From the NCBI GenBank assembly GCA_964647905.1, contig CAZYJR010000020.1:577-64576 (forward strand): 64,000 nucleotides of DNA, read 5' to 3'. Shown piece by piece: positions 12,971 through 47,969 of the stretch. Origin of the DNA: an uncultured Desulfobacterales bacterium. GTDB taxonomy: Bacteria > Desulfobacterota > DSM-4660 > Desulfatiglandales > HGW-15. Every line of letters starts with the position of its first letter. The stretch's first letter is position 1. The notes below the pieces were generated by a model. It saw only the letters and a program-made list of their open reading frames with translations. It made no database searches and was not told the origin of the DNA. A program made the position numbers and the translations under genes.

Positions 12971-13531
12971 TCATGAGCCGGCCCGGGTTTTCCCTTGGAG
13001 GCCGAAGCGCCTGACCAGGAATTCCGCCAGACCGCGGGTGTCGCCCGGGGAGAAGACAGGGCCTGACCAGTCCACCGGGTCGTCTGTGATCATGGCGATA
13101 AGGCGCCGGTCTCCCGGGCAGAAAGGGCGTTCGGAGACAGCCGCCCTGAAGACCTCCATCTTTGGTATGGGGGCGTTCTTGTATCCCTCGGCCAGGACCA
13201 GGGCCACTCCCGGGAGCATCAGGGCCAGCTCCCTAGGGTCGTGGTCGTAATCCACGTCGCGGATCAACCCGATCGCCGCCGGGGAGGATATGATCGTGCC
13301 GGCGGCTCCGGCCCGGCGATGGACCCAGGAGTCCTTCCCGGGCGTGTCCATGTCAAAGCTGTGTTCGTGATGCTTGACCGTGCCCACTACCAAGCCCATG
13401 GCCTTCAGCGCCGGTATCAGTCTTGCGATCAAAGTGGTCTTGCCCGCTCCCGAAAACCCGGCCACCGATACCACGGGCGGGCTCATCCCCTGCTCTGGTT
13501 CACTCGAATATCTCACGGAATATCTCGTCAT
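12971..13531 (-). CDS. mobB: Molybdopterin-guanine dinucleotide biosynthesis adaptor MobB
   Basis: P-loop VVSVAGFSGAGKTTLIARL followed by GTVKHHEH, the classic MobB pattern. Confidence 0.85.
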   Translation of the reverse strand: MTRYSVRYSSEPEQGMSPPVVSVAGFSGAGKTTLIARLIPALKAMGLVVGTVKHHEHSFDMDTPGKDSWVHRRAGAAGTIISSPAAIGLIRDVDYDHDPRELALMLPGVALVLAEGYKNAPIPKMEVFRAAVSERPFCPGDRRLIAMITDDPVDWSGPVFSPGDTRGLAEFLVRRFGLQGKTRAGS

Positions 13532-13829
13532 CTGCTTTTAGGCATCTATCCTTCAAAAGTGTGTATTTCCTGAGGAGTTCCTTGCCTGCCTCGGTCACCT
13601 GAGAGCCGCGCCTGCCGTCCGGATGTACCAGGCGGGTTTCCAGATGGCTCTCCGTGGCCTTTATCTTGCTCCAGACCGCCTTGTAAGACATCCTGAGAAG
13701 CTTCGCCGTCTTATTAATGGATCCGGTCTTGTCGATGGTCTCCAGGATTTTCATCCTGCCCTCACCCATTACCATTTGACCCTTTTTATTGACTATCCAT
13801 TGCCTGGAACGGAGTCTTAATTCAGTCAT
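13500..13829 (-). CDS. ModE-N-terminal-like winged-helix (LysR-type HTH) regulator
   Basis: 109 aa. The HTH ILETIDKTGSINKTAKLLRMSYKAVWSKIKATE matches the ModE N-domain / molybdenum-pterin-binding regulator family. It lies in the Mo-cofactor cluster. Confidence 0.7.
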   Translation of the reverse strand: MTELRLRSRQWIVNKKGQMVMGEGRMKILETIDKTGSINKTAKLLRMSYKAVWSKIKATESHLETRLVHPDGRRGSQVTEAGKELLRKYTLLKDRCLKADDEIFREIFE

Positions 13830-13863
13830 GTCCGGCCTCCCCGGGTGGCCCCGTGCGCCTGGT

Positions 13864-15798
13864 CTAAGATATTTCCGCGCATACCTCTCCGCTCCTGGAG
13901 GGGTCGTAACCTCCCAGTTCCTTTACCCGCTTGCGGAAACCCTCGGAGCGGATGGTCTCCAGCATGACCCCCAAGTTGGGCTCGTCCAGCCCGGAGGAAG
14001 GCACCACGAGCTGGTATTGCTCCCGGACCACCGGGATGAAGTCTAGATCCAAGGCCCTGGCTGCAGCCAATATGCCCATGCCGCAGTCGGCCGCTCCGGA
14101 GAGGACATCCACGGCCACCGCCATGTGCGTGAATTCCTCATGATCGTAGCCCCGGATCCGCTCGGGCCTCATCCCGCAAAGTGCCAGGCGATGATCCAGG
14201 AGCACCCGGGTGCCGGAACCGGCCTGCCTGTTCACGAAGGTTACCTCGTTTTCCGCCAGGTCCTCCAGGCCGCGAATACCCTTGGGGTTGCCCTTGGGGA
14301 CCATGAGGCCCTGTTCCCTCTCCACCAGGTGGAAGAGGGTGACCGGCTGGCTCTTGAGGTAGCGCTTGACATAGGGGATGTTGTACTCCCCTGTCTCCGG
14401 ATCCAGGAGGTGGGTCCCGGCCGCGTGGCAGTTCCCTTTCCTGACCGCCATGAGCCCCCCCAGACTCCCCACGTTTCCGGACGAGACCCTCAGATCGTGC
14501 CCCCTCTCTCGGATCTCGTCGGCCAGCAGGTCTAGGGTTATATCATGGCTTCCAATTATGATGATCGTCTTGTCCAGGTCTTCCTCGCTCACCAAGAGCT
14601 CTGCTTCCCCCTCCTCATCCTGGCCCACGCCTTCCGAGAGGGCGGGTATCCGAAGGATTCCTTCGGCCCTGGTCATGGTGGTTATGGATCCGGCGGCCCG
14701 CGGGAGTGGAGTGGCGACGCACCGGCCGCTTATCCTGCCTATGTTGACCCTGACGAACTCCTCTATTCCCGGCTTTGACGGGATGTCCCGTGAAGGGCGC
14801 ACCCTGACCGTGTCGGGCCGGGGAGCGGGAAGCCCCTGGAGGGCGAAGAGGAGGGGGCGGACGAACTGCTCGAAGGAGAGCGCGGCTGATACCGTGTAGC
14901 CGGGATTCCCCACCACCGGGGTCCCCCTTATATCGCCCAGTATGGTGGGCTTGCCGGGCATCATGGCCACCCCGTGAACCATTATCTCGCCCAAATCGCT
15001 TATCACCTTGGCGGTGTAATCCTTGCTGCCAGCAGAGGAACCGGCGTTCACCACTACCACGTCCGCCCCGGAAGCCAGCGCCCTCTCCACGGCCTCTCGT
15101 ATGGCCGGCTCATCGTCCGGGATGATCTCATGGACCGCGGCCGTTCCTCCGCATTCCTCCACCATGGCCGAGAGGGTGACGGAGTTGTACTCCAGTATCT
15201 TTCCCGGCGCGAGCCGGGGGGCGTCCTGCAGACCCCTGTGGGAGACAAGCTCCGAGCCAGTGGGGAGGATGGCAACCAAAGGTCTTTTCCACACCCGCAG
15301 GTCAAAGACGCCGGCGGATATGAGGGCCCCCATGTCCGAGGGGCGGATGCGGTGATTCCGGGGGAGCAGGAGTTGGGTGGCTACTATGTCCTCGCCCACT
15401 TTGCGCACGTTCTGCCAAGGGTGCGCGGGCGCGCGGATCTCCAGGTGCTCGCCGTCCACCTGGTGGAGCTTTTCCACCATGATCACGGCGTCGAAGCCCT
15501 CCGGCAGGATCTGCCCGGTGTTTATCCAGACCGCGTCTTTGCCTGTCTCCAGGATGCGGGGCCTTCTCTCCGTTGTCCCGTAGGTCTCTTGCGCCCTGAC
15601 AGCCACCCCGTCCATGGCGGCGGAATGGTAGTTCGGAGATGAGAGCCCGGCAAAGACGGTCTCAGCCGTGACCCGGCCGAGGGCCTTTTCCACGGGCACG
15701 GATTCCCCGGTGTTGAGGCTCGTGGTACCGAAACGCCCCAGAAAGAGTTCCCTGGCCTCCCGGAGCGGCTTCATGGCCAGATATACGTTTCTTTTCAA
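13864..15798 (-). CDS. moeA: Molybdopterin molybdenum/tungsten-transferase MoeA fused to a C-terminal periplasmic-binding-protein-like (PBP-like) domain
   Basis: 644 aa. MoeA motifs SPNYHSAAMDGVAVRA, ILPTGSELV, NAGSSAGSKDYT, VAMMPGKPT. About 230 extra C-terminal residues follow (IIIIGSHDITLDLLADE ... VNRQAGSGTRVLLD), typical of an anion-binding PBP-like domain. Confidence 0.85.
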   Translation of the reverse strand: MKRNVYLAMKPLREARELFLGRFGTTSLNTGESVPVEKALGRVTAETVFAGLSSPNYHSAAMDGVAVRAQETYGTTERRPRILETGKDAVWINTGQILPEGFDAVIMVEKLHQVDGEHLEIRAPAHPWQNVRKVGEDIVATQLLLPRNHRIRPSDMGALISAGVFDLRVWKRPLVAILPTGSELVSHRGLQDAPRLAPGKILEYNSVTLSAMVEECGGTAAVHEIIPDDEPAIREAVERALASGADVVVVNAGSSAGSKDYTAKVISDLGEIMVHGVAMMPGKPTILGDIRGTPVVGNPGYTVSAALSFEQFVRPLLFALQGLPAPRPDTVRVRPSRDIPSKPGIEEFVRVNIGRISGRCVATPLPRAAGSITTMTRAEGILRIPALSEGVGQDEEGEAELLVSEEDLDKTIIIIGSHDITLDLLADEIRERGHDLRVSSGNVGSLGGLMAVRKGNCHAAGTHLLDPETGEYNIPYVKRYLKSQPVTLFHLVEREQGLMVPKGNPKGIRGLEDLAENEVTFVNRQAGSGTRVLLDHRLALCGMRPERIRGYDHEEFTHMAVAVDVLSGAADCGMGILAAARALDLDFIPVVREQYQLVVPSSGLDEPNLGVMLETIRSEGFRKRVKELGGYDPSRSGEVCAEIS

Positions 15799-17099
15799 TC
15801 GCGATCTCCTGCTGCCGCCTTCCTCACCCCGCCGCGGAGGGCGCCCATTACATGGAAAGGCATCACCTCCACCACGGAGCCCTGGTAGAGCCCCTCGGTG
15901 AATCGGTCCACGCGCACCAGGCCGTCCGCCTCCACCAGTGGGGATATGAGGCCGGACTTACCGAACAGGGGCTCCGCAACCAGCCGCCTCTCAACGCTTA
16001 TCAATCTCACCCTGATGAAGTCGTCCCTGCCCTGGGCGGACTCGATGTTGCGGGCCAGTTCGGCCTCAACCCCTGGTATGCGGGGGGACGGCCAGTGCGC
16101 TTCACCGGCCAGCCGTCTTATGAAGGGGGAGAGAAGCACCTCGGCGACCACCAAGGCCGAGGCTGCGTGACCGGGCAGACCCCAGACCGTCTTGGCTCCC
16201 ATGCGGGCGAAGATCGTCGGCTTCCCCGGGCTTATGGAGACGCCGTGGGCCAGGATCTCCATGCCGGGAAAAGACTCCATCACCTGGACGGTCATGTCCC
16301 TGGTCCCCACCGAGCTCCCGCCCGAGATCCACAGAGAATCGGCCTTTTGGAGTCCCAGTTCCGCCTTCTCCCTCAAACTCTCGAACCGGTCCGGGGCCAG
16401 ACCCAGCACCACGGGCACCGCGCCCAGGGATCGACAGAATGCGGCCAGGGTATGGCTGTTCACGTCCCTTACCTCTCCCGGCCCCGGGGCTCGTTCCACC
16501 GGGACCACCTCGTCCCCGGTGGAGAGGACGGCCACCCTGGGCCGCCTGACCGCTGCGACTTCGGTCAAGCCGAGGCCGGCCAGGACTCCCACGTCCTGGG
16601 GCCTCAGCAGAGAGCCCCGGGTGAGCACCGTTTCGCCCCTCCTCACGTCGTCGTCGGGCTGGATAACGTTTTCCAGCGGGGAGACCGCACGGGCCACCTC
16701 AATGGTGCGCTGGTCAAGGCAGTGGCAATACTCTATCATGACCACGGCATCGGCGCCCGGAGGCAGCATTCCGCCGGTGGCGATCCTGACGGCCTGCCCC
16801 GCACCCACCTCCACTTCAGGGACGCGGCCCATGGAGACCTCTCCCGTGATCTCCAACAATGCAGGCAGGCTCTCTGTGGCCCCGAAGGTATCCTTGGCCC
16901 TGACCGCGAAACCGTCCATGGCTGAACGGCGGAAACCGGGCAGATCCTCCCCGGCCCCCACGTCGCGGGCCAGGGTGCGGCCGTAGGCCGTATCCAAGGG
17001 AACGGCCTCTTGGTCCAGGACCTGGAGATCTTCCATGATCGCGATTAGTTCCTCTATGGTCTTGAGGCGGAAGAACAAGCCCCCTCCTTGGAAATCCAC
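15795..17099 (-). CDS. moeA: Molybdopterin molybdenumtransferase MoeA (second paralogue)
   Basis: 434 aa with FRRSAMDGFAVRA, VLSTGDEVV, ISGGSSVGTRDMT, VSISPGKPT. A 4-nt stop/start overlap with the downstream moeA-PBP gene. Confidence 0.9.
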   Translation of the reverse strand: MDFQGGGLFFRLKTIEELIAIMEDLQVLDQEAVPLDTAYGRTLARDVGAGEDLPGFRRSAMDGFAVRAKDTFGATESLPALLEITGEVSMGRVPEVEVGAGQAVRIATGGMLPPGADAVVMIEYCHCLDQRTIEVARAVSPLENVIQPDDDVRRGETVLTRGSLLRPQDVGVLAGLGLTEVAAVRRPRVAVLSTGDEVVPVERAPGPGEVRDVNSHTLAAFCRSLGAVPVVLGLAPDRFESLREKAELGLQKADSLWISGGSSVGTRDMTVQVMESFPGMEILAHGVSISPGKPTIFARMGAKTVWGLPGHAASALVVAEVLLSPFIRRLAGEAHWPSPRIPGVEAELARNIESAQGRDDFIRVRLISVERRLVAEPLFGKSGLISPLVEADGLVRVDRFTEGLYQGSVVEVMPFHVMGALRGGVRKAAAGDRD

Positions 17100-20761: not shown

Positions 20762-21598
20762 TCAATCCTCCAATACGGCCGCTATATCCAGGTAGATGCG
20801 CCTTATCCCGGCCTCGAACGTCTCCCTGTCAAGGCCGGCCCGCAGCTCCCCCCTGTCCCACCACCCTATCTGGTTCAGGTGATCCGCATCAATGGTGCGG
20901 AGGTGGTAGCGCTCCTGCCAGAGTGCGGATGAAAGCGGGACCAGGCCGTCGTTCTCCCCCTCGCTCCTGCTTATGATGCGGTAGGAGAATTTCAAGGGCA
21001 GAAAGACCCGCTCCAGCGGCTGGACCCCGGCGACCGTGCGGTAGACTACTCCGTTTTGTTCCTCATAGGCCGATGCCGCCCGGTTGAAGCGCACGCAACT
21101 CTCGGTGGTGAGATCAAGGATGCCGCTGAGGTCCGGCCCCAGCTTCCCGGCCCGTGGAACCAACCAGCCGAGGCGTCCTACGCCCCAATCCGCATAGGGC
21201 GTCCCCAGGTGGGGCGTGCCTATGGTGGTAAGGGAGGCCACCCGCTCTTCCATACGGAATCTGAAGAGCATCATGCGCGCGTCCATGCCCCCCATGCTGT
21301 GGGCTATGATATGGACGCGGGGCCACCGGGTGAACCCCTCGGTCAAGCGCAGGAGCTCCCTGCGGAGGTCCCGGGCGCGGGCCTCCATACTCGAGGCCCA
21401 TCCCACCCTGGAATGAAATGCGGCGTATCCGTTCCGGATGAGAGTGCTCCTTATCAGCCGGAAGTAGTGGAAACGGTCGTCGCCGGTGTTGTCCCTGCCG
21501 CGCAGGGGATGGAGCACCCGATTGAAAGGGCATATCCCGTGGGCCAAAATGATGGGGAGCCTGGCGGGCAATCTGGGCTTTCCTCCTTCGATCCGCAC
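20762..21598 (-). CDS. Alpha/beta-hydrolase, lipase/esterase family
   Basis: Oxyanion-region PIILAHGI and nucleophile elbow IIAHSMGG, 278 aa. Confidence 0.75.
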   Translation of the reverse strand: MRIEGGKPRLPARLPIILAHGICPFNRVLHPLRGRDNTGDDRFHYFRLIRSTLIRNGYAAFHSRVGWASSMEARARDLRRELLRLTEGFTRWPRVHIIAHSMGGMDARMMLFRFRMEERVASLTTIGTPHLGTPYADWGVGRLGWLVPRAGKLGPDLSGILDLTTESCVRFNRAASAYEEQNGVVYRTVAGVQPLERVFLPLKFSYRIISRSEGENDGLVPLSSALWQERYHLRTIDADHLNQIGWWDRGELRAGLDRETFEAGIRRIYLDIAAVLED

Positions 21599-21704
21599 TC
21601 AACGCCCTTATACCCCGGACGACTGGGGATTGTCAAAGCCGCGCCCACCGCCGGCCGTCCTCTTTCCAGCCCTGATGATCATCTCCTGCTGTGGAAAAAA
21701 TCGG

Positions 21705-21734
21705 TTGACAAAAATCTCTTTGCTGGATTAGGGT
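21705..21734 (+). promoter_or_regulatory. Possible sigma70-type promoter upstream of hdrA
   Basis: A perfect -35 hexamer TTGACA (21705-21710) is followed after 18 nt by TAGGGT (21729-21734), a weak -10. It lies about 60 nt upstream of the hdrA ATG. Pattern match only. Confidence 0.25.
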
Positions 21735-21794
21735 TACAGGTCTTGGGAAAAAAATCACGACCGTTTAACCCTACAGAATAAGGAGAGAAATTCC

Positions 21795-24700
21795 ATGCCG
21801 AAGGACATCAGGGGTTCCGTCATGGTCGTTGGTGGCGGCATCGCCGGGATGCAGGCGGCCCTGGATCTGGCCGATTCCGGCTATTACGTCTACCTGCTGG
21901 AGAAGTCCCCCTCCATCGGGGGGGCAATGGCCCAGTTGGACAAGACGTTTCCCACCAATGACTGTGCCATGTGAATTATCTCGCCCAAACTGGTCGAGGT
22001 CGGCCGGCACATGAATATCGAGCTGATCACCCTGGCCGAGCTCCAGGGCCTCAGCGGCAAAAAGGGAAACTTCGAGGTCAGCATACTCCAACACCCCCGG
22101 TTCGTGGATATGGAGAAGTGTATCGGATGCGGGACCTGCGCCGAGAAGTGCCCCAGAAAGGTGACCGACGAATACAACCAGGGCCTGGCCAAGAGAAAGG
22201 CCATCTATGTGCCCTATGCCCAGGCGGTCCCACTGAAGTACGCAATAGACAAGGATAACTGCATTTACTTCAAAAAGGGAAAGTGCAAGGCCTGCGAGAA
22301 GTTCTGCCCCACTCAGGCGATCAAGTTCGACGATCAGGAGAAGACCTTCACCCTGAACGTGGGCTCGGTAATACTCGCGCCCGGGTTCCAGGCCTTTGAT
22401 CCTGGCGCCTTTGACACGTACGGCTACGCCGGCCACCCGAACGTGGTGACCTCCATGGAGTTCGAGAGGATCCTCTCGGCCTCAGGTCCCACCACGGGGC
22501 ACCTGGTGCGGCCTTCGGACGAGAAAGAGCCCCGGAAGATAGCATTTCTACAATGCGTGGGCTCCAGGGACATCAATCGCTGTGATCACGGCTACTGCTC
22601 CGCGGTTTGTTGTATGTATGCGGTAAAGGAGGCCGTGATCGCCAAGGAGCACAGCGGGGACGGCCTGGACTGCGCCATTTTCTTCATGGACATGAGGACC
22701 CACGGTAAGGATTTCGAGCGGTACTATCGCAACGCCGAGGACAATCAGGGAGTCCGGTTCGTCCGCTCCAGGATCCACACCGTGCAGCCCGTGCAGGGAA
22801 GCGACGATCTGCTCATAAGATACACGGACGAAGAGGGCGGACTGGAGGAAGAGATCTTCGATTTGGCGGTCCTCTCCGTGGGCCTGGAGACGCCCCCGGA
22901 GCTCCGGGAGCTGGCGGGAAAGCTGGATCTGGAGCTCACTGAAGGCCTGTTCTGCAGCACCGGGAGCTTCACCCCGGTGGAGACCAGCCGTGAAGGGGTG
23001 TATGTCTGCGGCGTCTTTCAGGGACCAAAGGATATCCCCCAGTCGGTGATCGAGGCGAGCTCCGCGGCCGCCGTGGCGGGAGCGCCACTGAGCCCGGCCC
23101 GGGACACGGAGACCAGGACCCGGGAGGTGCCGGAGGAGCGGAACGTAATCGGTGATCCGCCGCGGATCGGGGTCTTTGTGTGCCGGTGCGGTGTGAATAT
23201 AGCCGGTGTGGTGGACGTTGACTCGGTGGTGGAGTACGCAAGGGGACTTCCTTATGTGGAGTACGTTGCGGACAACCTCTATTCATGCTCCCAGGACACC
23301 CAGGACAACATGGCCAAGGTGATCCGGGAAAACGACTTGAACCGCATCGTGGTGGCCGCGTGCACCCCCAAGACCCATGAGCCCTTGTTCCAAGAGACCC
23401 TGGTGGATGCCGGCCTGAACAAGTACCTCTTCGAGATGACCAATATCCGCAATCAGGACTCCTGGGTCCACAAGGACGACCCTGAAGCGGCAACAGAGAA
23501 GGCCAAGGATCTGGTCCGTATGGCGGTCTCCAAGGTCGCCCTGATGGAGCCCCTGAAGGAGGCCGAGCTGGACGTCAACCAGCGGGCCCTGGTCCTGGGA
23601 GGCGGGATCTCGGGGCTGGTTGCGGCCAAGACCCTCAGCTCGCACGGCTATGACGTAACCCTGGTGGAGCGGGGAGGGACCCTGGGAGGACAGGCCCTGA
23701 ACCTGTACAGGACCTGGAAGGGGGAGGACATACAAGAGAGACTGGGCGCCCTGGTGGAGGCCGTTGAAAAGGACGGCCGTATCGATGTGCGGTTGAACAC
23801 AGAGTTGGTCCAGGTGGACGGCTTTGTGGGGAACTTCGAGTCGGTTCTCTCCACCGGAGGCGATGAGAGCACAGTGGAGCACGGTGTGGCTATCCTGGCC
23901 ACGGGCGCACAAGAATTGAAGCCCGCGGAGTACCTATACGGGGAAGATCCCAGGGTGCTCACCCACCAGGACCTCGACCGCAGGTTCATACAGGAGGATC
24001 CGGCCCTGAGCGACGTCCGGAGCGCCGTTTTCATCCAGTGCGTGGGGTCCAGGGAGCCCGATCGCCCTTATTGCTCCAGGGTTTGCTGCACCCACTCGGT
24101 GGAAAGCGCCCTTCACCTCAAGGAGGTCAATCCCGAGATGCGGGTCTATATCCTCTACAGGGATATGCGGACCTACGGAGAAAAAGAGGTCGTCTACAAG
24201 AGGGCCAGGGAGGCCGGGGTGATCTTCGTGCGCTATGAACCGGAGCGCAAGCCCGTTGTCAAGGCGGGCAAGGAGAGTCTGGACATTGAGGTCTACGACC
24301 CGATCCTGGGCAGGCCCGTCCTGATACATGCGGATCTGCTGGCCCTGGCCGGGGCCATCGTTCCGTACAAGGACGAAGGGCTGGCCCGGTTCTTCAAAGT
24401 GGCCATGAACGAGGACGGCTTCTTCGTGGAGGCCCACGCCAAGCTGGCGCCTTCCGAGTTCGCAACGGACGGGGTCTTCCTGTGCGGCATGGCCCATTAC
24501 CCCAAGCCCATCGACGAGTCCATAGCCCAGGCCCAGGCGGCCTCCTCCCGGGCCATCACCCTGCTGGCCAGGAAGGCCATAGCCACGAGCGGGACCGTGG
24601 CCTATGCAAATCCGGCCATGTGCAGCAGTTGCGGTGTGTGCGTGTCCATATGCCCGTACGGTGCGCCCTCGCTGCTTAAGGAGGGGCCTTTTGCCGGACG

Positions 24701-24824
24701 CGCCGAGGTCAACCCCGTACTCTGCAAGGGCTGCGGCCTGTGCGTGGCTTCCTGCCGTTCCGGGGCCATAAATCTCAAGGGCTTTGAGACCGGGCAGATA
24801 ATGGCCATGATCGATCATATGTAA
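21795..24824 (+). CDS. hdrA: HdrA-like heterodisulfide reductase subunit A family flavoprotein, long form (~1009 aa), with in-frame TGA (predicted selenocysteine) at 21972-21974
   Basis: The ATG at 21795 is preceded by an AGGAGAG RBS. The N-terminus [35 protein letters not shown] ... [23 protein letters not shown] is in the same frame as track ORF 22011..24824. The TGA replaces the Cys of the HdrA motif TNDC.MC. There are multiple 4Fe-4S Cys clusters ([35 protein letters not shown]). A second dinucleotide-binding segment [15 protein letters not shown] lies near residue 600. Confidence 0.85.
21990..22007 (+). promoter_or_regulatory. Candidate bacterial SECIS stem-loop for the hdrA UGA
   Basis: CUGGUC (21990-21995) pairs with GGCCGG (22002-22007): 4 G-C/C-G pairs plus 2 G-U pairs. 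The apical loop is GAGGUC and contains GGUC. The hairpin starts 15 nt after the UGA. Folded by eye only. Confidence 0.4.
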
Positions 24825-24908
24825 GCGGACCGGAGCGCCCGGCAAGAGCGCTCCCGGATATGGTTACAACCACCAGGCGCTTGACGCGCCGAGGATGATT
24901 CATCGAGC

Positions 24909-24930
24909 GGTTTCGCTCCCGAGCGAAACC
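24909..24930 (+). promoter_or_regulatory. Intercistronic stem-loop between hdrA and mvhD
   Basis: GGTTTCGCT (24909-24917) / AGCGAAACC (24922-24930) forms a 9-bp perfect stem with the 4-nt loop CCCG (24918-24921). It lies just upstream of the mvhD RBS (AAGGAGAAAGG). A second imperfect hairpin lies at 24830-24857. Confidence 0.5.
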
Positions 24931-24946
24931 CGGCAAGGAGAAAGGC

Positions 24947-25378
24947 ATGACTGAGTGGGAACCGAAGATCACGGCGTTCTTGTGCAACTGGTGCACGTAC
25001 GGGGCGGCGGACCTGGCAGGGGTCAGCCGCATGCAGTACCCGCCCAACATCAGGGTGATCCGCGTGCCTTGCTCGGGGCGGGTGTCGCCCAAGTTCATTT
25101 TGGCCGCCTTCAGGCACGGCGCGGACGGCGTGTGGGTCTCGGGGTGACACCCCGGCGACTGCCATTACCTGGAAGGTAATTACTACGCCAGACGCAAGTT
25201 CGTGCTTTTCAAGAATCTACTGGAGCATATTGGGATCGAGCCTGGAAGGCTCCACTTCTCCTGGATTTCCTCGGCCGAGGCCACCAAGTTCGTGGATGTG
25301 GCCAGGGAGGTGATCCAGGCCGTGAAAGAGGCCGGGCCCGCCGGGCGTCTCATCAAAGGCAAAGCCGAGGTGGCATGA
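24947..25378 (+). CDS. mvhD: MvhD/FlxD-like (methyl-viologen-reducing hydrogenase delta subunit family) protein with in-frame TGA (predicted selenocysteine) at 25145-25147
   Basis: Track ORF 24947..25147 ends ...[11 protein letters not shown]. The same frame continues [18 protein letters not shown]...KGKAEVA to the TGA at 25376-25378, whose ATGA overlaps the next gene's start. The joined sequence reproduces the MvhD motif (V.GC.PG.CHY) with U in place of Cys. Confidence 0.85.
25164..25180 (+). promoter_or_regulatory. Candidate bacterial SECIS stem-loop for the mvhD UGA
   Basis: AUUACC (25164-25169) / GGUAAU (25175-25180) forms a perfect 6-bp stem with the loop UGGAA. It starts 16 nt after the UGA, nearly the same spacing as in hdrA. 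Folded by eye only. Confidence 0.4.
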
Positions 25379-26331
25379 TGATCGAGTACACTGAGAAGAT
25401 AAGGGTGCGGGCCAAGGACTTGCTGGAAAAGGGAACGGTGGACGTCTTCATAGGATACAAGAAGGGCACCGTTCCCATGATGAACGAGCCTGTCCTGGTG
25501 ACCGACCCGGACAAGGTGGACATTCTCCACTGGGACAGCAACTGCGGCCTGAACCTGTGCAACTATCTCACCGGCCGGAAGGACAAGGTGGGAATACTTG
25601 CCACCGGCTGCAACTCCCGCAACATCGTGACCCACGTAATAGAGAACCAGGTGCAGCGGGAGCAGCTCTACATACTGGGAGTGCCTTGCACCGGCGTCAT
25701 AAACCACCGGGCGGTCAAGCGCGCAGTGAAGTACAGGGAGATCAGGGAGGTGGTGGAGGAGCCGGGCGGGCGTTTCACGGTCAAGGGACCCGGCTACGAG
25801 GAGACTTTTGACAAGGCGAAGTTCCTGCAGCTCAATTGTTCGGTCTGCACACACCGCAATCCGGTGGAATATGACGAGCTGGTGGCCGAAGAAGTCCCCG
25901 AGCAGGAGGGAGTGAGCCCATTCAAGGACGTGGACAAGATCGAGGCCATGGACCCGGACAAGAAATGGGGTTTCTTCACCCGAATGATCTCGCCCTGCAT
26001 AAGGTGCTACGCCTGCCGGAACGCCTGTCCCCTCTGCTATTGCCCGACTTGCTTCGTGGACGAATCCAGGCCCCAGTGGGTGGGCAAGAGCGTGGACCCC
26101 ACGGACACCATGACTTTTCACTTCCTGCGGGCTTATCACTGCGCGGGCAGGTGCACGGACTGCGGGGCCTGCGAGCGGGTGTGTCCGGTGGGCATACCGG
26201 TGCGCCAGTTCACCAAGAAGCTGAACAAGGACGCCCTGGAGCTGTTCGGTTGGGAGGCGGGCCTGAGCCTGGAACAGAGGCCTCCCCTGGATGTGTACCG
26301 CGTGGGCGACTACAACGAATTCGTGCGGTGA
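25375..26331 (+). CDS. Iron-sulfur oxidoreductase subunit (4Fe-4S dicluster protein; FlxC / sulfhydrogenase-beta-like)
   Basis: 318 aa with Cys clusters CIRCYACRNACPLCYCPTCF and CTDCGACERVCPVGI. Translationally coupled to mvhD. Confidence 0.75.
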   Translation: MMIEYTEKIRVRAKDLLEKGTVDVFIGYKKGTVPMMNEPVLVTDPDKVDILHWDSNCGLNLCNYLTGRKDKVGILATGCNSRNIVTHVIENQVQREQLYILGVPCTGVINHRAVKRAVKYREIREVVEEPGGRFTVKGPGYEETFDKAKFLQLNCSVCTHRNPVEYDELVAEEVPEQEGVSPFKDVDKIEAMDPDKKWGFFTRMISPCIRCYACRNACPLCYCPTCFVDESRPQWVGKSVDPTDTMTFHFLRAYHCAGRCTDCGACERVCPVGIPVRQFTKKLNKDALELFGWEAGLSLEQRPPLDVYRVGDYNEFVR

Positions 26332-26382
26332 CCCACGCCGGGGCATCAAGCCCGGTGGCTGAGAGGACACCTGATTTGAAGG

Positions 26383-27432
26383 ATGAATGCAATGAGCACG
26401 AAACTGTTTGCCAAGGATGAGTGGGTCGGGGCCCTCCAGGGCCTGACCGGCTCCTACCGGGTTTTCGCCCCGGTCAAGGAAGGGGATTTTCATAACTTCA
26501 GGGTGCTGGAAAACGGCACTCGGCCGAGCTTTGACTTCCAGAACACCCGACTCTCGCCGAAGCGCTTCTCCCTCCCCCAGTCCGAGAGGATGTTCGAATA
26601 CTCCCTGGGAGGTGAACAGGATGCACACATCCTGAAGGAGGCGGACAAGGAATTACCTCCCCAAGCGGTGGTGGGGGTTCGGCCTTGCGATGCATATGCG
26701 TTCCAGTTGGTCAGGAGGAACTTCGACAACCCGGAGCACCGCGATCCATGGTGGGTGAGGCGATACGAGTCCACTACGTTCGTGGGCCTGGGGTGCAACG
26801 AACCTTGCACCACCTGCTTTTGCGCCTCGGCCGGAACCGGGCCTTTCGGACGCAAGGGCCTCGACGTCCTCCTCTTCGACCTGGGAGATGCTTACCTGGC
26901 CAAGGGGCTTACCGACAAGGGCGAGGAGCTCCTTGGCAAGCTGGACGGGGGGAAGGAGGCGGACCAGGCCTCGGTCAAGAAGGCGGAGTCACTGACCCGC
27001 CAAGCCGCTTCCAAGTTCGACTCCAGGGTCCCTACGGACAAGCTGGGGGAAAAGGTGGTGACCGAGCTCTTTGATGCGCCTTTTTGGGAAGAGGTGGCCT
27101 TTGCCTGCATCAACTGCGGCACTTGCACCTATCTCTGCCCCACATGCTGGTGCTTCGACATCCAGGACGAGGTCCGACCCCTGAGACAGGAAGGGGACCG
27201 AATCAGGAACTGGGATTCGTGCATGTTTCCCCTGTTCACGCTTCACGGCTCAGGGCATAATCCCAGGGCGGACAAGACGGCTCGGGTAAGGCAGCGGTTC
27301 ATGCACAAGCTCAAGTATTACGTGGACAAGTACCGCGACGGGATCCAGTGCGTCGGCTGCGGGAGATGCATCCAGTTCTGCCCGGTAAACATTGACATCC
27401 GCGAGGTGGCCCGGCGGATAAACGACTTCTGA
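26383..27432 (+). CDS. Iron-sulfur oxidoreductase subunit (4Fe-4S dicluster protein; FlxB / AsrA / sulfhydrogenase-beta-like)
   Basis: 349 aa with CTTCFCASAG, CINCGTCTYLCPTCWCFD and CVGCGRCIQFCPVNI. The start may be the Met at 26392. Confidence 0.75.
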   Translation: MNAMSTKLFAKDEWVGALQGLTGSYRVFAPVKEGDFHNFRVLENGTRPSFDFQNTRLSPKRFSLPQSERMFEYSLGGEQDAHILKEADKELPPQAVVGVRPCDAYAFQLVRRNFDNPEHRDPWWVRRYESTTFVGLGCNEPCTTCFCASAGTGPFGRKGLDVLLFDLGDAYLAKGLTDKGEELLGKLDGGKEADQASVKKAESLTRQAASKFDSRVPTDKLGEKVVTELFDAPFWEEVAFACINCGTCTYLCPTCWCFDIQDEVRPLRQEGDRIRNWDSCMFPLFTLHGSGHNPRADKTARVRQRFMHKLKYYVDKYRDGIQCVGCGRCIQFCPVNIDIREVARRINDF

Positions 27433-27521
27433 GAATGCCTTGTGCGGTCCGGTGCGCACCCAAACGGTCTCCCGGGCGGGGCGCACCAGGGACGAACATA
27501 ATTGATACAGGGGGTGTTCCA

Positions 27522-28364
27522 TTGGAAAATCCGTATCTTCCATATCCGGTTTGGATAGACCGCATCGTAACCGAGACCGAGGACAAGAACCTCAAGACTT
27601 TTGATCTGGTCTTCCTGGAGTCCGGAGACGAGGCCAAGTTCGCTTATACGCCCGGCCAGTTCGCCGAGCTCTCCATCGCAGGGCAGGGGGAGATCCCCAT
27701 AGGTATAGCCTCCTCGCCTACTGAGAAGGGCTTCATCAGGTTCACCGTGAACAAGGTGGGCAAGGTGACCTCCCATCTCCACAGCATGAAGGAAGGGGAC
27801 ATCATGGGAGTGCGCGGTCCCCTGGGAAACTGGTATCCTTGGGAGGAGATGGAAGGCAGGAACGTGGTGATCATAGGCGGCGGGTTCGCCTTCACCACCC
27901 TCCGGTCCAGCATTGTGTACATGCTGAACCCTGACAATCGGGAGAGATTCAAGGATATTACCGTGGTCTACGGGGCCCGGTCGCCCGGGATGCTCCTCTA
28001 CAAGGAGGAGCTCATGGATTGGGAGAAGCGCGACGACCTGGAGATGCACATCACGGTTGACGCCACGGACGACCCGGATTGGAAGTACAATGTGGGATTC
28101 GTACCTCAGATCACCGAGGAGAAGATCACCAGCTCGGATGACGCCATGGCCATCGTGTGCGGACCTCCGATAATGATCCGCTTCACGCAGCCGGTTCTGG
28201 AAAAGCTGGGCTTTCCGCCGGAACGCATCATACTCTCACTGGAAAACCGCATGAAATGCGGTATAGGCATGTGCGGCAGGTGCAACATAGGCGATCAGTA
28301 CGTATGCAAGGACGGGCCGGTCTTTTCCCTGGCCAAGCTGAAGGAGCTTCCCCCGGACTACTGA
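27522..28364 (+). CDS. FAD/NAD(P)-binding oxidoreductase with a C-terminal 2Fe-2S site (FlxA / HydG / PyrK-like)
   Basis: Ferredoxin-reductase-type fold: FAYTPGQFAELSI, VVIIGGGFAFTTLRS, and C-terminal CGIGMCGRCNIG..YVCKDGPVF. The proposed start is TTG at 27522 (ENPYLPYP...), after a purine-rich ACAGGGGG. The track ORF begins at 27435 and overlaps upstream sequence. Confidence 0.8.
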   Translation: MENPYLPYPVWIDRIVTETEDKNLKTFDLVFLESGDEAKFAYTPGQFAELSIAGQGEIPIGIASSPTEKGFIRFTVNKVGKVTSHLHSMKEGDIMGVRGPLGNWYPWEEMEGRNVVIIGGGFAFTTLRSSIVYMLNPDNRERFKDITVVYGARSPGMLLYKEELMDWEKRDDLEMHITVDATDDPDWKYNVGFVPQITEEKITSSDDAMAIVCGPPIMIRFTQPVLEKLGFPPERIILSLENRMKCGIGMCGRCNIGDQYVCKDGPVFSLAKLKELPPDY

Positions 28365-28407
28365 TCAGGATGTCCGTTTCAGTCCCACCTCTCTCCGACG
28401 AGGCGAG

Positions 28408-28761
28408 ATGGCCAAGAAGACACCCATAACCTTTGTGGCTCAAGGCACCCGTTTCCAGGGGGACATCCACAGTGATGCACGGATAGTGGTGGAAGGGACC
28501 GTGGAGGGAAACGTCCGCTGCATGGAGATGACCATCGCTCCGTCCGGACGCGTGGTGGGCGATTTGCAGGCAGCCTCCCTGGCTGTGGCCGGGACCTACA
28601 AGGGGAACCTGGTGGCCCACCGCAGGGTCACGATCCACGCAACGGGCTCGGTGGAAGGGGGCTTGTTCACCCGCACCCTGGTGGTGGAGGAGGGCGGACG
28701 CATGAACGGCGACATCAAGGTGATGACCTCGATGGATGAGTTCCCTGAAGTGATCTCTTGA
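28408..28761 (+). CDS. Bactofilin (polymer-forming cytoskeletal protein, DUF583)
   Basis: 117 aa with a repetitive beta-helix pattern: FQGDIHSDARIVVEGTVEGNV...GRVVGDLQAASLAVAGTYKGNLVAHRRVTIHATGSVEG. Confidence 0.85.
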   Translation: MAKKTPITFVAQGTRFQGDIHSDARIVVEGTVEGNVRCMEMTIAPSGRVVGDLQAASLAVAGTYKGNLVAHRRVTIHATGSVEGGLFTRTLVVEEGGRMNGDIKVMTSMDEFPEVIS

Positions 28762-28785
28762 TGCCGCCCGGCGCACCAATCCTTC

Positions 28786-30282
28786 CTATATGTCCTCTCC
28801 CCGGGAATGGGTCTGCCGGAGCCCCGAAAGAGTCTCCCAGATCTCTTTCACCTGCCTCCGGGTCTCTTCCATACTCCCGCTGTTGTCTATTACGAAATCG
28901 GCGTAGCCCGGCTTCTCTTCTATGGGGAGCTGGGCGCGGAGCATGTTGGAAGCCTCTTCTTCGCTGATGCCGTCCCTTGCAGCCAGCCTCCGGATCTGCT
29001 CCTCGGCGGGAATGTAGACGACCAGGATCTTGTGGAACATGTACTGGAGGTTTAGCTCCAAGAGCAGCGGCACCGCCACCTGGATCACCGAGCCGGGTCT
29101 CCGGGAGGCTATCTCGTTCACCCGGCGGGCGAACCGCTCGAAGATCCTTGGGTGAGTGAACGACTCCAGCTTCTTTCTCTTTTCCATGTCCCGGAACACT
29201 ATGGACGAGAGCCTCTTGCGGTCCAGGCGTCCGTCTTCGGACAGGACCTGCTTCCCGAAGTACTCCACTATCTCCCGGTAGGCGGGTTGTCCCGGCTCCA
29301 CCACTTCCTTGGCGATTACGTCGAAGTCGATCATGGGCGCTCCCAGCTCCTCCAGCATGGATGAGACCGTGCTCTTGCCGCTGGCGATCCCCCCGGTCAC
29401 GCCGACGAGCAGCCGGCCGTCCTCGCCCCGGATCTCCTTTGCGGTCCGCTCCAAGCGGGTGTAGGCCGTGGGGAGCAGGGCGTATACGTCCGACTCGGCT
29501 CCTGCAAAGCTGATGGGGTATCGGATCCCGCGGCGGTAGAGGGACTCGAGCCCCCTGACCGCCTTTTCCACCGCCCGGGCGGGGAGGGCCATTACCAGTT
29601 CGTCGTCCTGGGCATGGCCGTATCTCCTCTCTCCGTAGCAGGGAATGGTGAGCTTGGGTCTGTCCTCCAGGTAGCATCTGGCCAATGCGTCCGCGCACGA
29701 AGTCTCTCCCACGCAGGAGAACTCCATGACCTCGTAGTCCTCGAACTGGAGCGCGTTGATCAGCAGTATCACTTGGGCGGGGTTGCCGTAGATGAGCACG
29801 ATATCCGGCTCAAAGGGATCGTAGACCAGCGGGGCCATTACCACGGCCTGGTATTTCCCGAGGGGGAGGTGAGGGATGGAGCTTTCATACTTCTTGCCGT
29901 CCTCCCGGCACTTGACCCAGACAATGCTCCTGAAGGTGCCGTCCATGTAAATGCCGGGCTTCTCCCTGAGCCCCAGCATGGCGGGGCACGAGGGAAGGGC
30001 GAAATCCGCGTCCTCCGCCCCCACGGTCCAATCGAAGTTCCGGACCAGGTTTATCATCTGGCAAAGCGTCAGGTTCCTCTCCGGTCGCCTGAGAAACGGG
30101 ATGGTCTCCAGATCCTCCTTGTTGTCCAGCATCTTGAAGGCCACGGGAAAGGAACGGAGTCTGAGCAGTCGTTCGAGCTTCTTGACCAACGGTTCCCACT
30201 TGGCGGTCTCTCCCATCGCGTTCGGCTCCTTCTGTTTCCGATGAGGGCTTCGAATCGCGCAGCAGTCATCGGGTGCGGTCAT
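28786..30282 (-). CDS. coaE: Fusion protein: N-terminal DUF169 domain + C-terminal dephospho-CoA kinase (CoaE)
   Basis: A single 498 aa frame. The N-terminal half resembles DUF169 (FPVAFKML...LTLCQMI...LPSCPAMLGLRE). The C-terminal half is CoaE (LLVGVTGGIASGKSTVSSMLEELGAPMIDFDVIAKEVV...). There is no stop and no ATG/GTG/TTG start codon directly ahead of the P-loop. Confidence 0.75.
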   Translation of the reverse strand: MTAPDDCCAIRSPHRKQKEPNAMGETAKWEPLVKKLERLLRLRSFPVAFKMLDNKEDLETIPFLRRPERNLTLCQMINLVRNFDWTVGAEDADFALPSCPAMLGLREKPGIYMDGTFRSIVWVKCREDGKKYESSIPHLPLGKYQAVVMAPLVYDPFEPDIVLIYGNPAQVILLINALQFEDYEVMEFSCVGETSCADALARCYLEDRPKLTIPCYGERRYGHAQDDELVMALPARAVEKAVRGLESLYRRGIRYPISFAGAESDVYALLPTAYTRLERTAKEIRGEDGRLLVGVTGGIASGKSTVSSMLEELGAPMIDFDVIAKEVVEPGQPAYREIVEYFGKQVLSEDGRLDRKRLSSIVFRDMEKRKKLESFTHPRIFERFARRVNEIASRRPGSVIQVAVPLLLELNLQYMFHKILVVYIPAEEQIRRLAARDGISEEEASNMLRAQLPIEEKPGYADFVIDNSGSMEETRRQVKEIWETLSGLRQTHSRGEDI

Positions 30283-40135: not shown

Positions 40136-41164
40136 ATGAGCCCATTGGAGGACATCGCTGCGAGCCGGGAGGGCGCCCGGGGGTTGGTGGACGGAAACAA
40201 CCGCGAAATCAACTACCTGCGTGTCTCACTGACCGATCGCTGCAACCTGAGATGCATTTACTGTATGCCGCCCGAAGGGATTCGGCCTCTTCCCCACGGC
40301 GAGATCCTGACATACGAGGAGATCCTTCACGTGGTGCGCCTGGCCGTCAGCGGGGGCATACGCAAGGTCAGGCTCACAGGCGGCGAGCCGCTGGTCCGCA
40401 GGGAGGTCATGGGCTTCATCCGCCGCTTGGTGGAGCTCCCCGGCCTGGAGCAGGTGACCCTGACCACCAACGGGGTCCTGCTGGCTGAATGCGCGGGGGA
40501 GCTCAGGGACCGCGGTGTGACAGGGGTCAACGTCAGCCTGGACTCACTGCGCCCGGAACGCTTCGCCAAGATCACCAGAAGGGATCTCTTTCATCGCGTT
40601 CGGGACGGGCTGCTGGAGGCGGAGCGGGTGGGGTTCCGCTCCATCAAGATCAATGTGGTGGCCATGCGGGGCATAAACGACGATGAGATACTGGATTTCG
40701 CCCGGTTGAGCCTAGAGAGGCCTTATCACGTCCGGTTCATAGAGTTCATGCCGGTAGGACTGGAAAACGGCTGGAACGACGACAGGTTCATACCAGCAGG
40801 CGAGATCCGGGAGCGGATACAAGAGGTCGGACCGCTCCGCCCCCTGGTTCACAGGCCCCTGGACGGACCCGCGGAGCGGTTCATGCTGGAGGGCGCCCGT
40901 GGAGAGCTGGGCTTCATAGCCGCTCTCTCGCACCATTTCTGCACCTTGTGTAACCGACTCCGCCTGACGCCGGAGGGGCACTTGAGGGGGTGCCTGTTCT
41001 CGGACCAGGAGATCGATCTGAAAGGCCCCATGCGGGCCGGTACATCGGACGAGGCCCTCATGGAGCGGATCCTGTATGCCGTGGAGAGCAAGCCCGGGTG
41101 GCACGGCCGCCTGGTGAACGCCCCCCGCAAGTGCACGCGGCCCATGTCCTCCATCGGGGGCTAG
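40136..41164 (+). CDS. moaA: GTP 3',8-cyclase MoaA (radical SAM)
   Basis: LRVSLTDRCNLRCIYCMP radical-SAM cluster motif, RLTGGEPL, and the C-terminal second-cluster region CTLCNRLRLTPEGHLRGCL. Confidence 0.95.
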   Translation: MSPLEDIAASREGARGLVDGNNREINYLRVSLTDRCNLRCIYCMPPEGIRPLPHGEILTYEEILHVVRLAVSGGIRKVRLTGGEPLVRREVMGFIRRLVELPGLEQVTLTTNGVLLAECAGELRDRGVTGVNVSLDSLRPERFAKITRRDLFHRVRDGLLEAERVGFRSIKINVVAMRGINDDEILDFARLSLERPYHVRFIEFMPVGLENGWNDDRFIPAGEIRERIQEVGPLRPLVHRPLDGPAERFMLEGARGELGFIAALSHHFCTLCNRLRLTPEGHLRGCLFSDQEIDLKGPMRAGTSDEALMERILYAVESKPGWHGRLVNAPRKCTRPMSSIGG

Positions 41165-43083: not shown

Positions 43084-43092
43084 GGGGTTTCC

Positions 43093-45887: not shown

Positions 45888-46250
45888 CGCCACCTCCCCG
45901 GCGCCTCCGACGGCCGATTCCCACCCCGGGCCGTGGCGGGGATCATCTTTAAGACAAGTCGAAACATACCACCGCACCTAAAATCCCTGCAAGGCAAAAG
46001 CGGGTGGGATAGCTTTCCCTCCCTGTAACCTTACCGTTGTCCTTGTGCGCCGGGTTGCCATCAACCCGCGTGATGTATGTCCTTGCAAAATTGAGGCTTG
46101 CTTTGATCATCCCTAATGGGTACTATGCTCGCATCTATGCATGCTTTCTTAGGATTTGGATAGCGATTTTGCCGCACTAGCGAGGGAGCTATGCCTCAAG
46201 GCGCACCCAAAGCCCCATTTCTCATGAGAGACGTGGGGCTTTGCGTTATG

Positions 46251-46548
46251 GAGACAGATGCGCAATGGGGGGCGACGTTCAAGCTGCGGGAGGTCCTATG
46301 CGGGAATCTGAACGAGTCGGGCTTGAATCTCGAATCCTGCGGTTTTCAAGATTGTAGGGCAAATGTGGAATCCGATGGCCTCCATCGCTACAATTGGAAT
46401 TACTCACTTCTCGGTTTTGAGCGTTAAGAACTCAAGACCCAATCCCCCTGTTCGCCGGTATTCTAACTACCATACCGTTGTCATGGCCCGCAAGGAAATC
46501 AAGGCCGTGCTGGCGAACTTGTACGGAGACAAATAGTTGATGGCCTCG
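46251..46548 (+). pseudogene. Tyrosine recombinase remnant (integron-integrase/XerD-like clade), frameshifted and with an internal stop
   Basis: Frame 1 reads ..TFKLREVLCGNL.. (compare the integrase helix ..LLFLYREVLG..). A shifted frame reads PVRRYSNYHTVVMARKEIKAVLANLYGDK-TAG-LMAS, which matches the ..RLPVVLTREEVKAVLA.L.GDKWLMASLLYG.. pattern with TGG(W) changed to TAG at 46534-46536. The similarity stops after LMAS. Confidence 0.45.
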
Positions 46549-46597
46549 TTCGACAGACCAATACCCAGCCTTGGTTTAAGGCCGAAAAGGTGGTAAA

Positions 46598-46894
46598 ATG
46601 CCAGTGAATTATAATTTCGAATGGGACCCTATAAAGGCCCGCGAGAACCTAAATAAGCATAATGTGGGCTTTGACGAAGCGGCGACGATATTTAGAGACT
46701 CAAAGGCGCTTTCCATATTTGATCCAGACCACAGCGAAACCGAAGACCGATGGATAACTATGGGTATTTCAGAAAAGGGACGGTTGCTGATTGTCAATCA
46801 TAGTTTCCTAGAAGAAAGTCGAGAAGAAGTCAAGATCAGAATTATGTCAAGCCGAAGGGCTACAAAAAGGGAAACAAAAAAATACGGTGACTAA
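46598..46894 (+). CDS. brnT: BrnT-family toxin (DUF497)
   Basis: FEWDPIKARENLNKHNVGFDEAATIF...DPDHSETEDRWITMGISEKGRLLIVNH...IRIMSSRRATKRETKKY is the canonical BrnT pattern. Confidence 0.85.
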   Translation: MPVNYNFEWDPIKARENLNKHNVGFDEAATIFRDSKALSIFDPDHSETEDRWITMGISEKGRLLIVNHSFLEESREEVKIRIMSSRRATKRETKKYGD

Positions 46895-46896
46895 AC

Positions 46897-47097: not shown

Positions 47098-47207
47098 GGG
47101 GATAGGAACTTGCTTTTTAGGTAGCAGGATAGCGGAAGGCATCTTTGGGTGTCAACAAGAAACGCCTAAACTTGTTCCGCTGGACGCGCTCCGAACTTCC
47201 GGCGGAC

Positions 47208-47337: not shown

Positions 47338-47408
47338 TACCCAATAAACCACTTGACAACATGACCTCTAAAATGTGCACGTGAATGCACATTATAAGGA
47401 GATATGAT

Positions 47409-47950: not shown

Positions 47951-47969
47951 CTCCCTGCAACCATTGATA

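Follow-up and report, generated by a model that had tools for sequence, protein, structure and literature searches.

The stretch of DNA analysed here (64,000 nucleotides of contig CAZYJR010000020.1 from an uncultured Desulfobacterales bacterium, referred to below as the window) contains a gene related to hdrA, which is shortened in the public annotation owing to an in-frame TGA codon at positions 21972-21974. This TGA is very probably a selenocysteine (Sec) codon, located at residue 60 of a fused double HdrA-like flavo-iron-sulfur protein of 1009 residues. An earlier note on this DNA, made from the sequence alone, had predicted Sec at this position, and the prediction is now strengthened by the alignment of the codon with Cys/Sec197 of the methanogen HdrA proteins, by its retention as TGA in 62 of 69 related loci, and by the freezing of synonymous codon positions in a hairpin that lies immediately downstream of it.

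The full-length reading frame and the position of the TGA codon

If translation is started from the ATG at 21795-21797, then the frame extends for 1009 codons up to the TAA at 24822-24824, and the only internal stop present in it is the TGA, which is found within the sequence TNDCAM-U-IISPK. The Shine-Dalgarno-like sequence AAGGAGAG precedes this ATG. The earlier note had described this start with its ribosome-binding site, had named the TGA as the sole interruption of the frame, and had stated that automated annotation would lose 72 codons. Direct reading of the sequence and translation of the whole frame bear out the first two points, and the third is seen in the mechanical list of open reading frames (ORFs), where the gene starts from the ATG at 22011, giving a product of 937 amino acids (aa) that is 72 codons short at its N-terminus, as well as in the public protein (P0001), which is of the same length and 100% identical to the shortened product. 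Most of the closest relatives of P0001 in the protein database are also 904-937 aa long, as would be expected if they were truncated in the same way.

The 72 codons in question encode the flavin adenine dinucleotide (FAD)-binding N-terminus of HdrA, as the earlier note had supposed. In an alignment of the window protein with 18 full-length Cys-type homologues of 1008-1021 aa (alignment A1), which include a Desulfatibacillum alkenivorans protein annotated as HdrA, collinearity extends back to residue 1 and takes in the GxGxxG FAD-binding fold, and the Pfam match to the FAD/pyridine-nucleotide-disulfide-oxidoreductase fold begins at residue 8. A lack of homology of these codons to HdrA, which the earlier note had listed as an outcome speaking against its proposal, is thus contradicted residue for residue by the alignment. 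All 18 homologues have Cys in the column of the TGA, which corresponds to the second Cys of the motif TNDC(S/A)MC, and this is the position that the note had assigned to it. When solved structures are considered, residue 60 aligns with the Cys of D-C-S-M-C in 8rvv/8rvu (position 197 in the 5odc numbering) and with the residue X, i.e. Sec, in the sequence DDCAMXILAPKMV of 9sfi_A. The comparison with Cys- and Sec-containing HdrA proteins that the note had called for therefore places both residues at this site. The 9SFI entry is the Hdr-Vhu-Fwd structure of Methanococcus maripaludis, whose authors name the residue at this site Sec197/U197 (PMC13518236), and the TGA in the window falls on the residue that has been seen experimentally as Sec in a homologue.

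When genomes were scanned, one for each species, 80 related loci were obtained, all of them from Desulfobacterota or from metagenome-assembled genomes (MAGs) and isolates labelled as unclassified 'delta proteobacterium', the best match being 79% identical. The aligned codon, which was compared in 69 loci, is TGA in 62 and TGT/TGC in the other 7, and the genomes concerned include Desulfatibacillum alkenivorans, Desulfoluna butyratoxydans, Desulfosudis oleivorans and Olavius symbionts.

If the TGA were a genuine stop codon, then the protein would start from the ATG at 22011 and the 59 codons upstream of the TGA would be either a remnant or a separate small ORF. This interpretation agrees with the ORF list and with the public record, both of which give 937 aa, with the presence of GAGG 11 nucleotides (nt) before the ATG at 22011, and with the use of TGA as a normal stop elsewhere in the window. 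However, in the 937-aa product the first thioredoxin reductase (TrxR)-like domain would have lost both its GxGxxG FAD-binding strand-helix and its CxxC/U motif, and codon 73, which is the annotated start, is Leu in 46 of 58 orthologues, encoded in 32 of these by the non-initiating CTN, so that a start at this position is not conserved. Further, the protein sequence encoded by these 59 codons is conserved, the TGA is kept in 62 loci, and a remnant would not retain the frozen hairpin described below. Hence, we consider it highly improbable that the TGA terminates translation.

The hairpin downstream of the TGA codon in hdrA

Starting 15 nt after the TGA there is an 18-nt hairpin, CUGGUCG-AGGU-CGGCCGG, in which the two loop G residues are at nt 27 and 28, counted from the U of UGA. 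The earlier note had described a stem CUGGUC/GGCCGG with the loop GAGGUC; the 6-base-pair (bp) stem is indeed found, but the loop is smaller than was stated, as the minimum free energy (MFE) fold adds a closing G-C pair to give a stem of 7 bp and a loop of AGGU. According to a 2026 review (PMC13188914), the bacterial selenocysteine insertion sequence (bSECIS) has a loop of 3-9 nt with a G in its first two positions, an upper stem of 4-16 bp, a distance of 16-37 nt from the UGA to the loop and an MFE of <= -7.5 kcal/mol. The values for the hairpin in the window all lie within these limits, viz. a 4-nt loop with G at position 2, a 7-bp stem, a spacing of 22 nt and a free energy of -9.1 kcal/mol when folded alone. 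The note had called this structure SECIS-like, a description that these values and the codon data given next sustain.

The evidence that the hairpin exceeds chance comes from comparative data and not from the folding of a single sequence. The six codons that form it (CTG GTC GAG GTC GGC CGG, codons +6 to +11 after the TGA) show no variation in 58 distinct Sec-type sequences, and the frozen stretch also takes in the preceding AAA at 21987-21989. Among cultured relatives, Desulfatibacillum alkenivorans DSM 16219 and Desulfoluna butyratoxydans have the identical hairpin. Nearby third positions in the same genes vary widely, viz. with an entropy of 1.98 of 2 bits for Ser +3 and 1.86 of 2 bits for Pro +4, while His +12 is encoded by CAC in 22 and by CAT in 35 sequences. 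The 7 Cys-type genes encode the same peptide KLVEVGRH in mixed codons, and their equivalent 18-mers fold with 0 to -7.8 kcal/mol. All 6-codon windows of the gene were also scanned in 35 full-length Sec-type orthologues that are 55-79% identical in amino acids to the window protein. The normalised codon entropy was 0.000 for those starting at codons 65 and 66, compared with a gene median of 0.80 and a value of 0.54 for the lowest unrelated one, and the ten lowest values in the gene all belong to stretches overlapping the UGA/hairpin region (codons 60-74). These results point to selection acting on the hairpin at the RNA level, beyond the coding constraint.

A divergent Sec-type paralogue, found in two of the loci (L055:10547 and L057:10383; DCAI-U-ILSPKMLDVGRH), does not have the invariant 18-mer. 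In this case a different 7-bp stem, GGAUGUC/GGCAUCC, carries a GGUC loop about 4-5 nt farther from the UGA, and hence the loop motif is retained on a different stem.

It may be asked if the frozen stretch of 18-21 nt could serve an RNA function other than that of a SECIS, e.g. as a pause site, as a target of a regulatory protein or small RNA, or as a recombination hot spot, since invariance without covariation is unusual if structure alone mattered. However, all 60 main-type TGA genes contain the exact hairpin and none of the 7 Cys-type genes does, although the peptide encoded is the same, the geometry of the hairpin lies within the bSECIS limits, and the second gene described below has the same geometry with another sequence, just as the paralogue has the GGUC loop on another stem. 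A function of this kind in place of SECIS activity is therefore extremely improbable.

Similarity of the hairpin to the SECIS of E. coli fdhF, which the earlier note had suggested on account of the loop, is borne out by the AGGUC apex common to both. In fdhF, as read from NC_000913, the UGA is followed by GGUUGCAGGUCUGCACC and the element is UGACACGGCCCAUCGGUUGCAGGUCUGCACC. Both are stem-loops within the coding sequence 3' of the UGA (GCAGGUCUGC in fdhF versus UCGAGGUCGG in the window), and SelB is the presumed reader of the hairpin in the window, as in E. coli. However, the loop GG in fdhF is at nt 22-23 from the U of UGA rather than at nt 27-28, and the 7-bp stem in the window is without an evident bulged U and is unrelated in sequence to that of fdhF.

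Some other features of this region may be noted. An outer helix UGUGCC/GGCACA that would enclose the UGA in the 91-nt MFE fold was rejected, as the third position of the partnering Cys codon varies (TGT in 22 and TGC in 36 sequences) and the partnering first base of codon +13 differs in most relatives. A Cys-type (TGC) gene at L043:6178 has the sequence CTGGTCGAGGTGGGCCGG, which is one base off the Sec-type hairpin and folds with -7.8 kcal/mol; this could be a fossil SECIS left by a Sec-to-Cys conversion, or it could reflect GC-rich codon usage. A scan of 21400-28900 for promoters and terminators gave nothing useful.

A second predicted selenoprotein gene, mvhD, in the same cluster

The 550 bp that separate hdrA from the following ORF of the list appear empty but contain an mvhD/vhuD-like gene, which mechanical ORF calling reduces to a 66-codon fragment (24947-25147) as it also contains an in-frame TGA. 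Its product matches the solved MvhD chain 5odc_D over the full length (residues 1-132, E = 4.8e-51), and the counterpart of the TGA in this chain is the Cys of GGCHLGDCHY. The score of 137 bits against the NCBIfam VhuD model is below the equivalog cut-off of 215 bits, and the membership thus holds at the family level only. In 73 related sites the codon is TGA in 66 and TGY in 7. A hairpin is also present at codons +6 to +11 downstream of this TGA, and these codons show little or no variation among 57 distinct sequences; in one locus (L059) the hairpin reads AUUACCA-GUC-UGGUAAU, which is a two-sided change of the seventh pair from U:A to A:U. In both hdrA and mvhD the GG is at nt 27-28 from the U of UGA, and the occurrence within one cluster of two independent UGA codons, each with a hairpin of the same geometry, indicates strongly, though indirectly, that Sec is decoded by this organism.

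This bears on the possibility that UGA is read in this organism as Trp, Gly or Cys, either by a variant code or by near-cognate suppression. Reassignment of UGA is known in some bacterial lineages, and Cys is tolerated at the position in homologues. However, TGA is the commonest true stop in the window, where it ends at least 23 of the 40 well-supported genes with family matches, and therefore UGA is not globally reassigned. Further, the only two internal TGA codons in the family-supported genes are those on a redox Cys with a frozen G-loop hairpin at a fixed distance, and the relatives Desulfobacterium autotrophicum and the Olavius symbionts are documented users of Sec (PMC2702500, PMC1976440). 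Based on these observations, we give exceedingly little credence to an amino acid other than Sec. That the TGA is an error of sequencing or assembly, or that a Cys codon (TGC/TGT) was recently mutated and the gene thereby made a pseudogene, has a practically negligible probability. In favour of this reading, TGA is one base from either codon, and the contig is apparently metagenome-assembled, the closest relatives being MAGs. However, TGA is found at this codon in 62 loci that were assembled independently, by which an error or a private pseudogene is ruled out, a second conserved TGA is present in mvhD, and the remainder of the 3-kb frame is intact.

There are also observations that weigh against Sec at residue 60 and against the SECIS assignment. 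The support for Sec60 is at the level of sequence and not of protein. Genes for selA, selB, selD and tRNA-Sec were all absent from the 64-kb window: ARAGORN found neither a tRNA nor a tRNA-Sec in it, and searches of about 60 of its ORFs with Pfam and NCBIfam gave no selA, selB or selD. When the hairpin of hdrA is folded in 49 nt of its context, its free energy of -10.2 kcal/mol is equalled or bettered by 85 of 200 shuffled sequences (z = 0.05, or -0.20 for 91 nt); in a sequence of 60% GC, the question of the hairpin thus could not be settled from a single sequence. As the hairpin is invariant in the orthologues, there are no compensatory changes, and the helix is supported by the fit to the model, by the paralogue and by analogy with mvhD only. 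Lastly, no Rfam family matched any part of the window at the gathering threshold, and under permissive settings the region 21900-25300 gave matches at chance level only.

The gene neighbourhoods of the related loci show some further variety. Several of them (L023, L036, L040, L055, L069 and others) have two hdrA-like and/or mvhD-like genes within about 10 kb, with Sec and Cys types mixed, and in many loci (L037-L048 and others) the Sec-type motif is found about 3 kb upstream of the gene matching the query. Tandem paralogy of hdrA/mvhD modules appears to be common.

Protein architecture and organisation of the gene cluster

The 1009-residue protein is a fusion of two HdrA-like halves. The first half (residues 1 to about 440) contains the FAD/TrxR-like domain with C57-A-M-U60, an inserted 2x[4Fe-4S] ferredoxin domain (Fer4 motifs at residues ~104-173 in Pfam) and a CxGxRD...CSxxCC motif, and is without the HdrA N-terminal domain; its residues 4-434 match 9sfi_A, 8rvv_A and 5odc_A with E = 6.5e-121 to 2.1e-119. 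The second half (residues ~447-1009) aligns with methanogen HdrA from residue 4 of the latter (E = 2e-120). It has an N-terminal-type domain with C463, C465, C498 and C523, but neither a Cys197 motif nor an inserted ferredoxin domain. The cluster motif C-x-G-x-R-D-x(6-8)-C-S-x-x-C-C occurs at 254-273 and again at 749-765, with its Cys residues invariant in alignment A1. The hallmarks of HdrA are therefore present but divided, viz. Sec60 is in the first half and the N-terminal cluster domain in the second.

The cluster continues after mvhD with three genes on the same strand, whose matches are all below the equivalog cut-offs, so that their assignments in Table 1 hold at the family level only. 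They likely form an NAD(P)H-linked partner module. Partners of the hdrB/hdrC type were absent from the neighbouring genes, among which Pfam and NCBIfam gave no match to the CCG domain, and the same searches found no hydrogenase large subunit in the cluster. Because of this, the protein is filed here as HdrA-like and not as a proven heterodisulfide reductase, and the gene content suggests that the cluster is an NAD(P)H-linked HdrA-MvhD module for flavin-based electron bifurcation rather than a CoM-S-S-CoB reductase. Directly after the cluster there is an ORF for 117 aa (28408-28761) with a high GC content at third codon positions, which has no match in NCBIfam, the sole library used for it; judged by eye from its repetitive beta-strand sequence, the product resembles a bactofilin-like protein.

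Table 1. Features of the hdrA-mvhD cluster (positions in the window)
Feature	Position	Strand	Description and evidence
Shine-Dalgarno-like sequence AAGGAGAG	21780..21787	+	GGAG core 21782-21785, 9 nt before ATG 21795; read from sequence
Fused double HdrA-like gene, predicted selenoprotein	21795..24824	+	1009 codons, ~110 kDa; translation, Pfam, solved HdrA chains, alignment A1
In-frame TGA, predicted Sec codon	21972..21974	+	Residue 60; aligns with Cys/Sec197 of methanogen HdrA; TGA in 62/69 loci
Predicted SECIS hairpin of hdrA, CUGGUCG-AGGU-CGGCCGG	21990..22007	+	18 nt, 7-bp stem, 4-nt loop; MFE fold, zero codon variation
ATG of mechanical ORF and public annotation, not the real start	22011..22013	+	ORF list; P0001; Leu in most orthologues
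mvhD/vhuD-like gene	24947..25378	+	143 codons; translation; 5odc_D match; NCBIfam VhuD and HdrA2 C-terminal matches
In-frame TGA of mvhD, predicted Sec codon	25145..25147	+	VWVSG-U-HPGDCHY; aligns with Cys of 5odc_D
Predicted SECIS hairpin of mvhD, AUUACCU-GGA-AGGUAAU	25164..25180	+	7-bp stem; fold z = -2.1; codons +6 to +11
Iron-sulfur (Fe-S) protein gene	25375-26331	+	Pfam, NCBIfam
HydB/ShyB/AsrA-like Fe-S beta subunit gene	26383-27432	+	Pfam, NCBIfam
HydG/ShyC/AsrB-like FAD/NAD(P)-binding gamma subunit gene	27435-28364	+	Pfam, NCBIfam

Comparison with known HdrA systems

The presence of Sec-encoding UGA codons in hdrA and mvhD is already known, and both families have been catalogued as deltaproteobacterial selenoproteins since 2006. 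The earlier note had referred to HdrA as an established selenoprotein family, and the literature agrees with this (PMC1794560, PMC1976440, PMC2702500), as does Sec197 of M. maripaludis. HdrA and FrhD/MvhD are described among the bacterial selenoprotein families, clustered with each other, and fused hdrA-hdrA genes in Deltaproteobacteria were noted in the same work, where Syntrophobacter fumaroxidans is credited with 7 HdrA and 8 FrhD selenoproteins (PMC1794560). The delta-1 and delta-4 symbionts of Olavius have 4 Sec-containing HdrA proteins each, mostly beside FrhD (PMC1976440), and Desulfobacterium autotrophicum has Sec-containing HdrA and MvhD along with complete selA, selB, selC and selD (PMC2702500).

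The cluster in the window resembles those of the Deltaproteobacteria (viz. Syntrophobacter fumaroxidans, Syntrophus, Desulfotalea, the Olavius symbionts and Desulfobacterium autotrophicum) in that a UGA-containing hdrA is followed by a Sec-type frhD/mvhD, fused hdrA-hdrA genes are described and the selenoproteomes are large. The related loci from our scan also include an Olavius Delta 4 symbiont and Desulfatibacillum. However, the published operon, glpC-hdrA-frhD-frhG-frhA, includes a hydrogenase, whereas in the window HydB/HydG-like genes follow mvhD. The likeness is to be understood at the family level and does not indicate orthology to one named gene. The 'HdrL' of Desulfobacterium autotrophicum was rejected as an orthologue, since it is described as an Hdr/glutamate-synthase fusion and the window protein consists of tandem HdrA-like halves.

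The HdrA of M. maripaludis (PDB 9SFI/9T1S) shares with the window protein a homologous TrxR-like FAD domain (E = 6.5e-121) and Sec at the same C-A-M-U position (DCAMU-IISPK in the window, DCAMX-ILAPK in 9sfi), and it is likewise partnered with a Sec-containing VhuD/MvhD. However, the archaeal protein consists of one HdrA unit of ~658 aa, assembles as a homodimer and has HdrBC and Vhu/Fdh as its partners, whereas the gene in the window is a fused double with no adjacent hdrBC. In addition, its SECIS is of the archaeal type, located outside the coding sequence, unlike the predicted in-frame bSECIS in the window. Fused or tandem HdrA proteins are also described, viz. HdrA3/4 of anaerobic methanotrophic archaea (ANME) and the HdrA of the HdrABC-MvhD-MetFV complex of Moorella thermoacetica, and as in the window protein, the N-terminal cluster domain and the Cys197 ligand are found in opposite halves (PMC9012536), an arrangement that suggests an intramolecular heterodimer. 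However, in the described fusions the N-terminal domain comes first and Cys197 second, while in the window this order is reversed and the Cys197 position is that of Sec.

Proposed mechanism and possible roles of Sec60

The following account of recoding is inferred from the sequence signature and the known mechanism in E. coli. During translation the hairpin with the AGGU loop would act as a bacterial SECIS and recruit SelB·GTP·Sec-tRNASec to the ribosome, and the UGA would then be read as Sec and not as a stop. Sec60 would be placed in a C-x-x-U motif beside the bifurcating FAD, at the position of Cys/Sec197. For the enzyme of M. wolfeii, it is Cys197 from the partner chain that completes the N-terminal [4Fe-4S] cluster of an HdrA, and fused HdrA proteins with complementary loss of the N-terminal domain and of Cys197 have been read as built-in heterodimers (PMC9012536). 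In the M. maripaludis study, density joins Sec197 to a Cys, and a selenylsulfide relay between the cluster and FAD was proposed, with the role of Sec197 explicitly left open by the authors (PMC13518236). By homology, either of two roles may hold for Sec60. It may complete, as fourth ligand, the coordination of the [4Fe-4S] cluster in the N-terminal-type domain of the second half, which would make the protein an intramolecular pseudo-dimer, or it may take part in a Cys-Sec selenylsulfide relay between this cluster and FAD.

The SECIS of the orthologue group is invariant in its sequence and not merely in its structure, though the proteins are 55-79% identical to that in the window. A broader proposal, which is speculative and which we consider unlikely as a whole, would combine a single-chain asymmetric HdrA, in which Sec60 serves the [4Fe-4S] domain of the second half, with a sequence-invariant SECIS resulting from sequence-specific recognition by SelB, from gene conversion or from horizontal transfer. 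If this proposal were true, then the single-chain asymmetric HdrA would be well suited to distinguishing between the two roles considered for Sec197, viz. that of a cluster ligand and that of a Cys-Sec selenylsulfide relay to FAD, and the invariance of the SECIS could mean either unusually sequence-specific recognition by SelB or a spread by gene conversion or horizontal transfer.

Significance for annotation

As HdrA and MvhD have long been catalogued as selenoproteins, the finding made here should be interpreted as a known recoding event, correctly recognised in a gene for which the annotation is wrong both in this record and in many relatives, by which one more instance is added to a catalogued family, and its main value is practical, i.e. 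for the correction of annotation. Neither the FAD-binding N-terminus nor the redox-active C-x-x-U motif is part of the public 937-aa product, and because hdrA and mvhD are both cut by annotation, reconstructions from Desulfobacterota MAGs under-call two selenoproteins per cluster and may misjudge the dependence of these organisms on selenium. The exact 18-nt hairpin together with a TGA 15 nt upstream of it could serve as a marker for repairing such annotations.

Other features of the window

Genes for molybdenum-cofactor synthesis are present at 253-969, 12971-17099 and 40136-41164 (a MocA-like cytidylyltransferase, MobB, two MoeA-type proteins and MoaA). They fit an organism with molybdo- or tungsto-enzymes, of which the formate dehydrogenases, often selenoproteins, are an example; the window contains no enzyme of this kind. 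An island of low GC content at 46000-48000 (0.43-0.47 versus 0.60 overall), which adjoins genes for FtsK/SpoIIIE-like and AAA ATPases (41161-44982), contains only short ORFs, one of them for a BrnT-family ribonuclease toxin (46598-46894), and is possibly a small mobile or defence-type insertion. In a second such island at 58000-62900, where the GC content falls to 0.38, there are genes for a DUF4277/DDE transposase (59505-61199, minus strand), a DUF3368 PIN-like protein (58383-58883) and an AbiEii/DUF2204-type nucleotidyltransferase (61789-62238), and this island looks like an insertion sequence element with toxin-antitoxin cargo.

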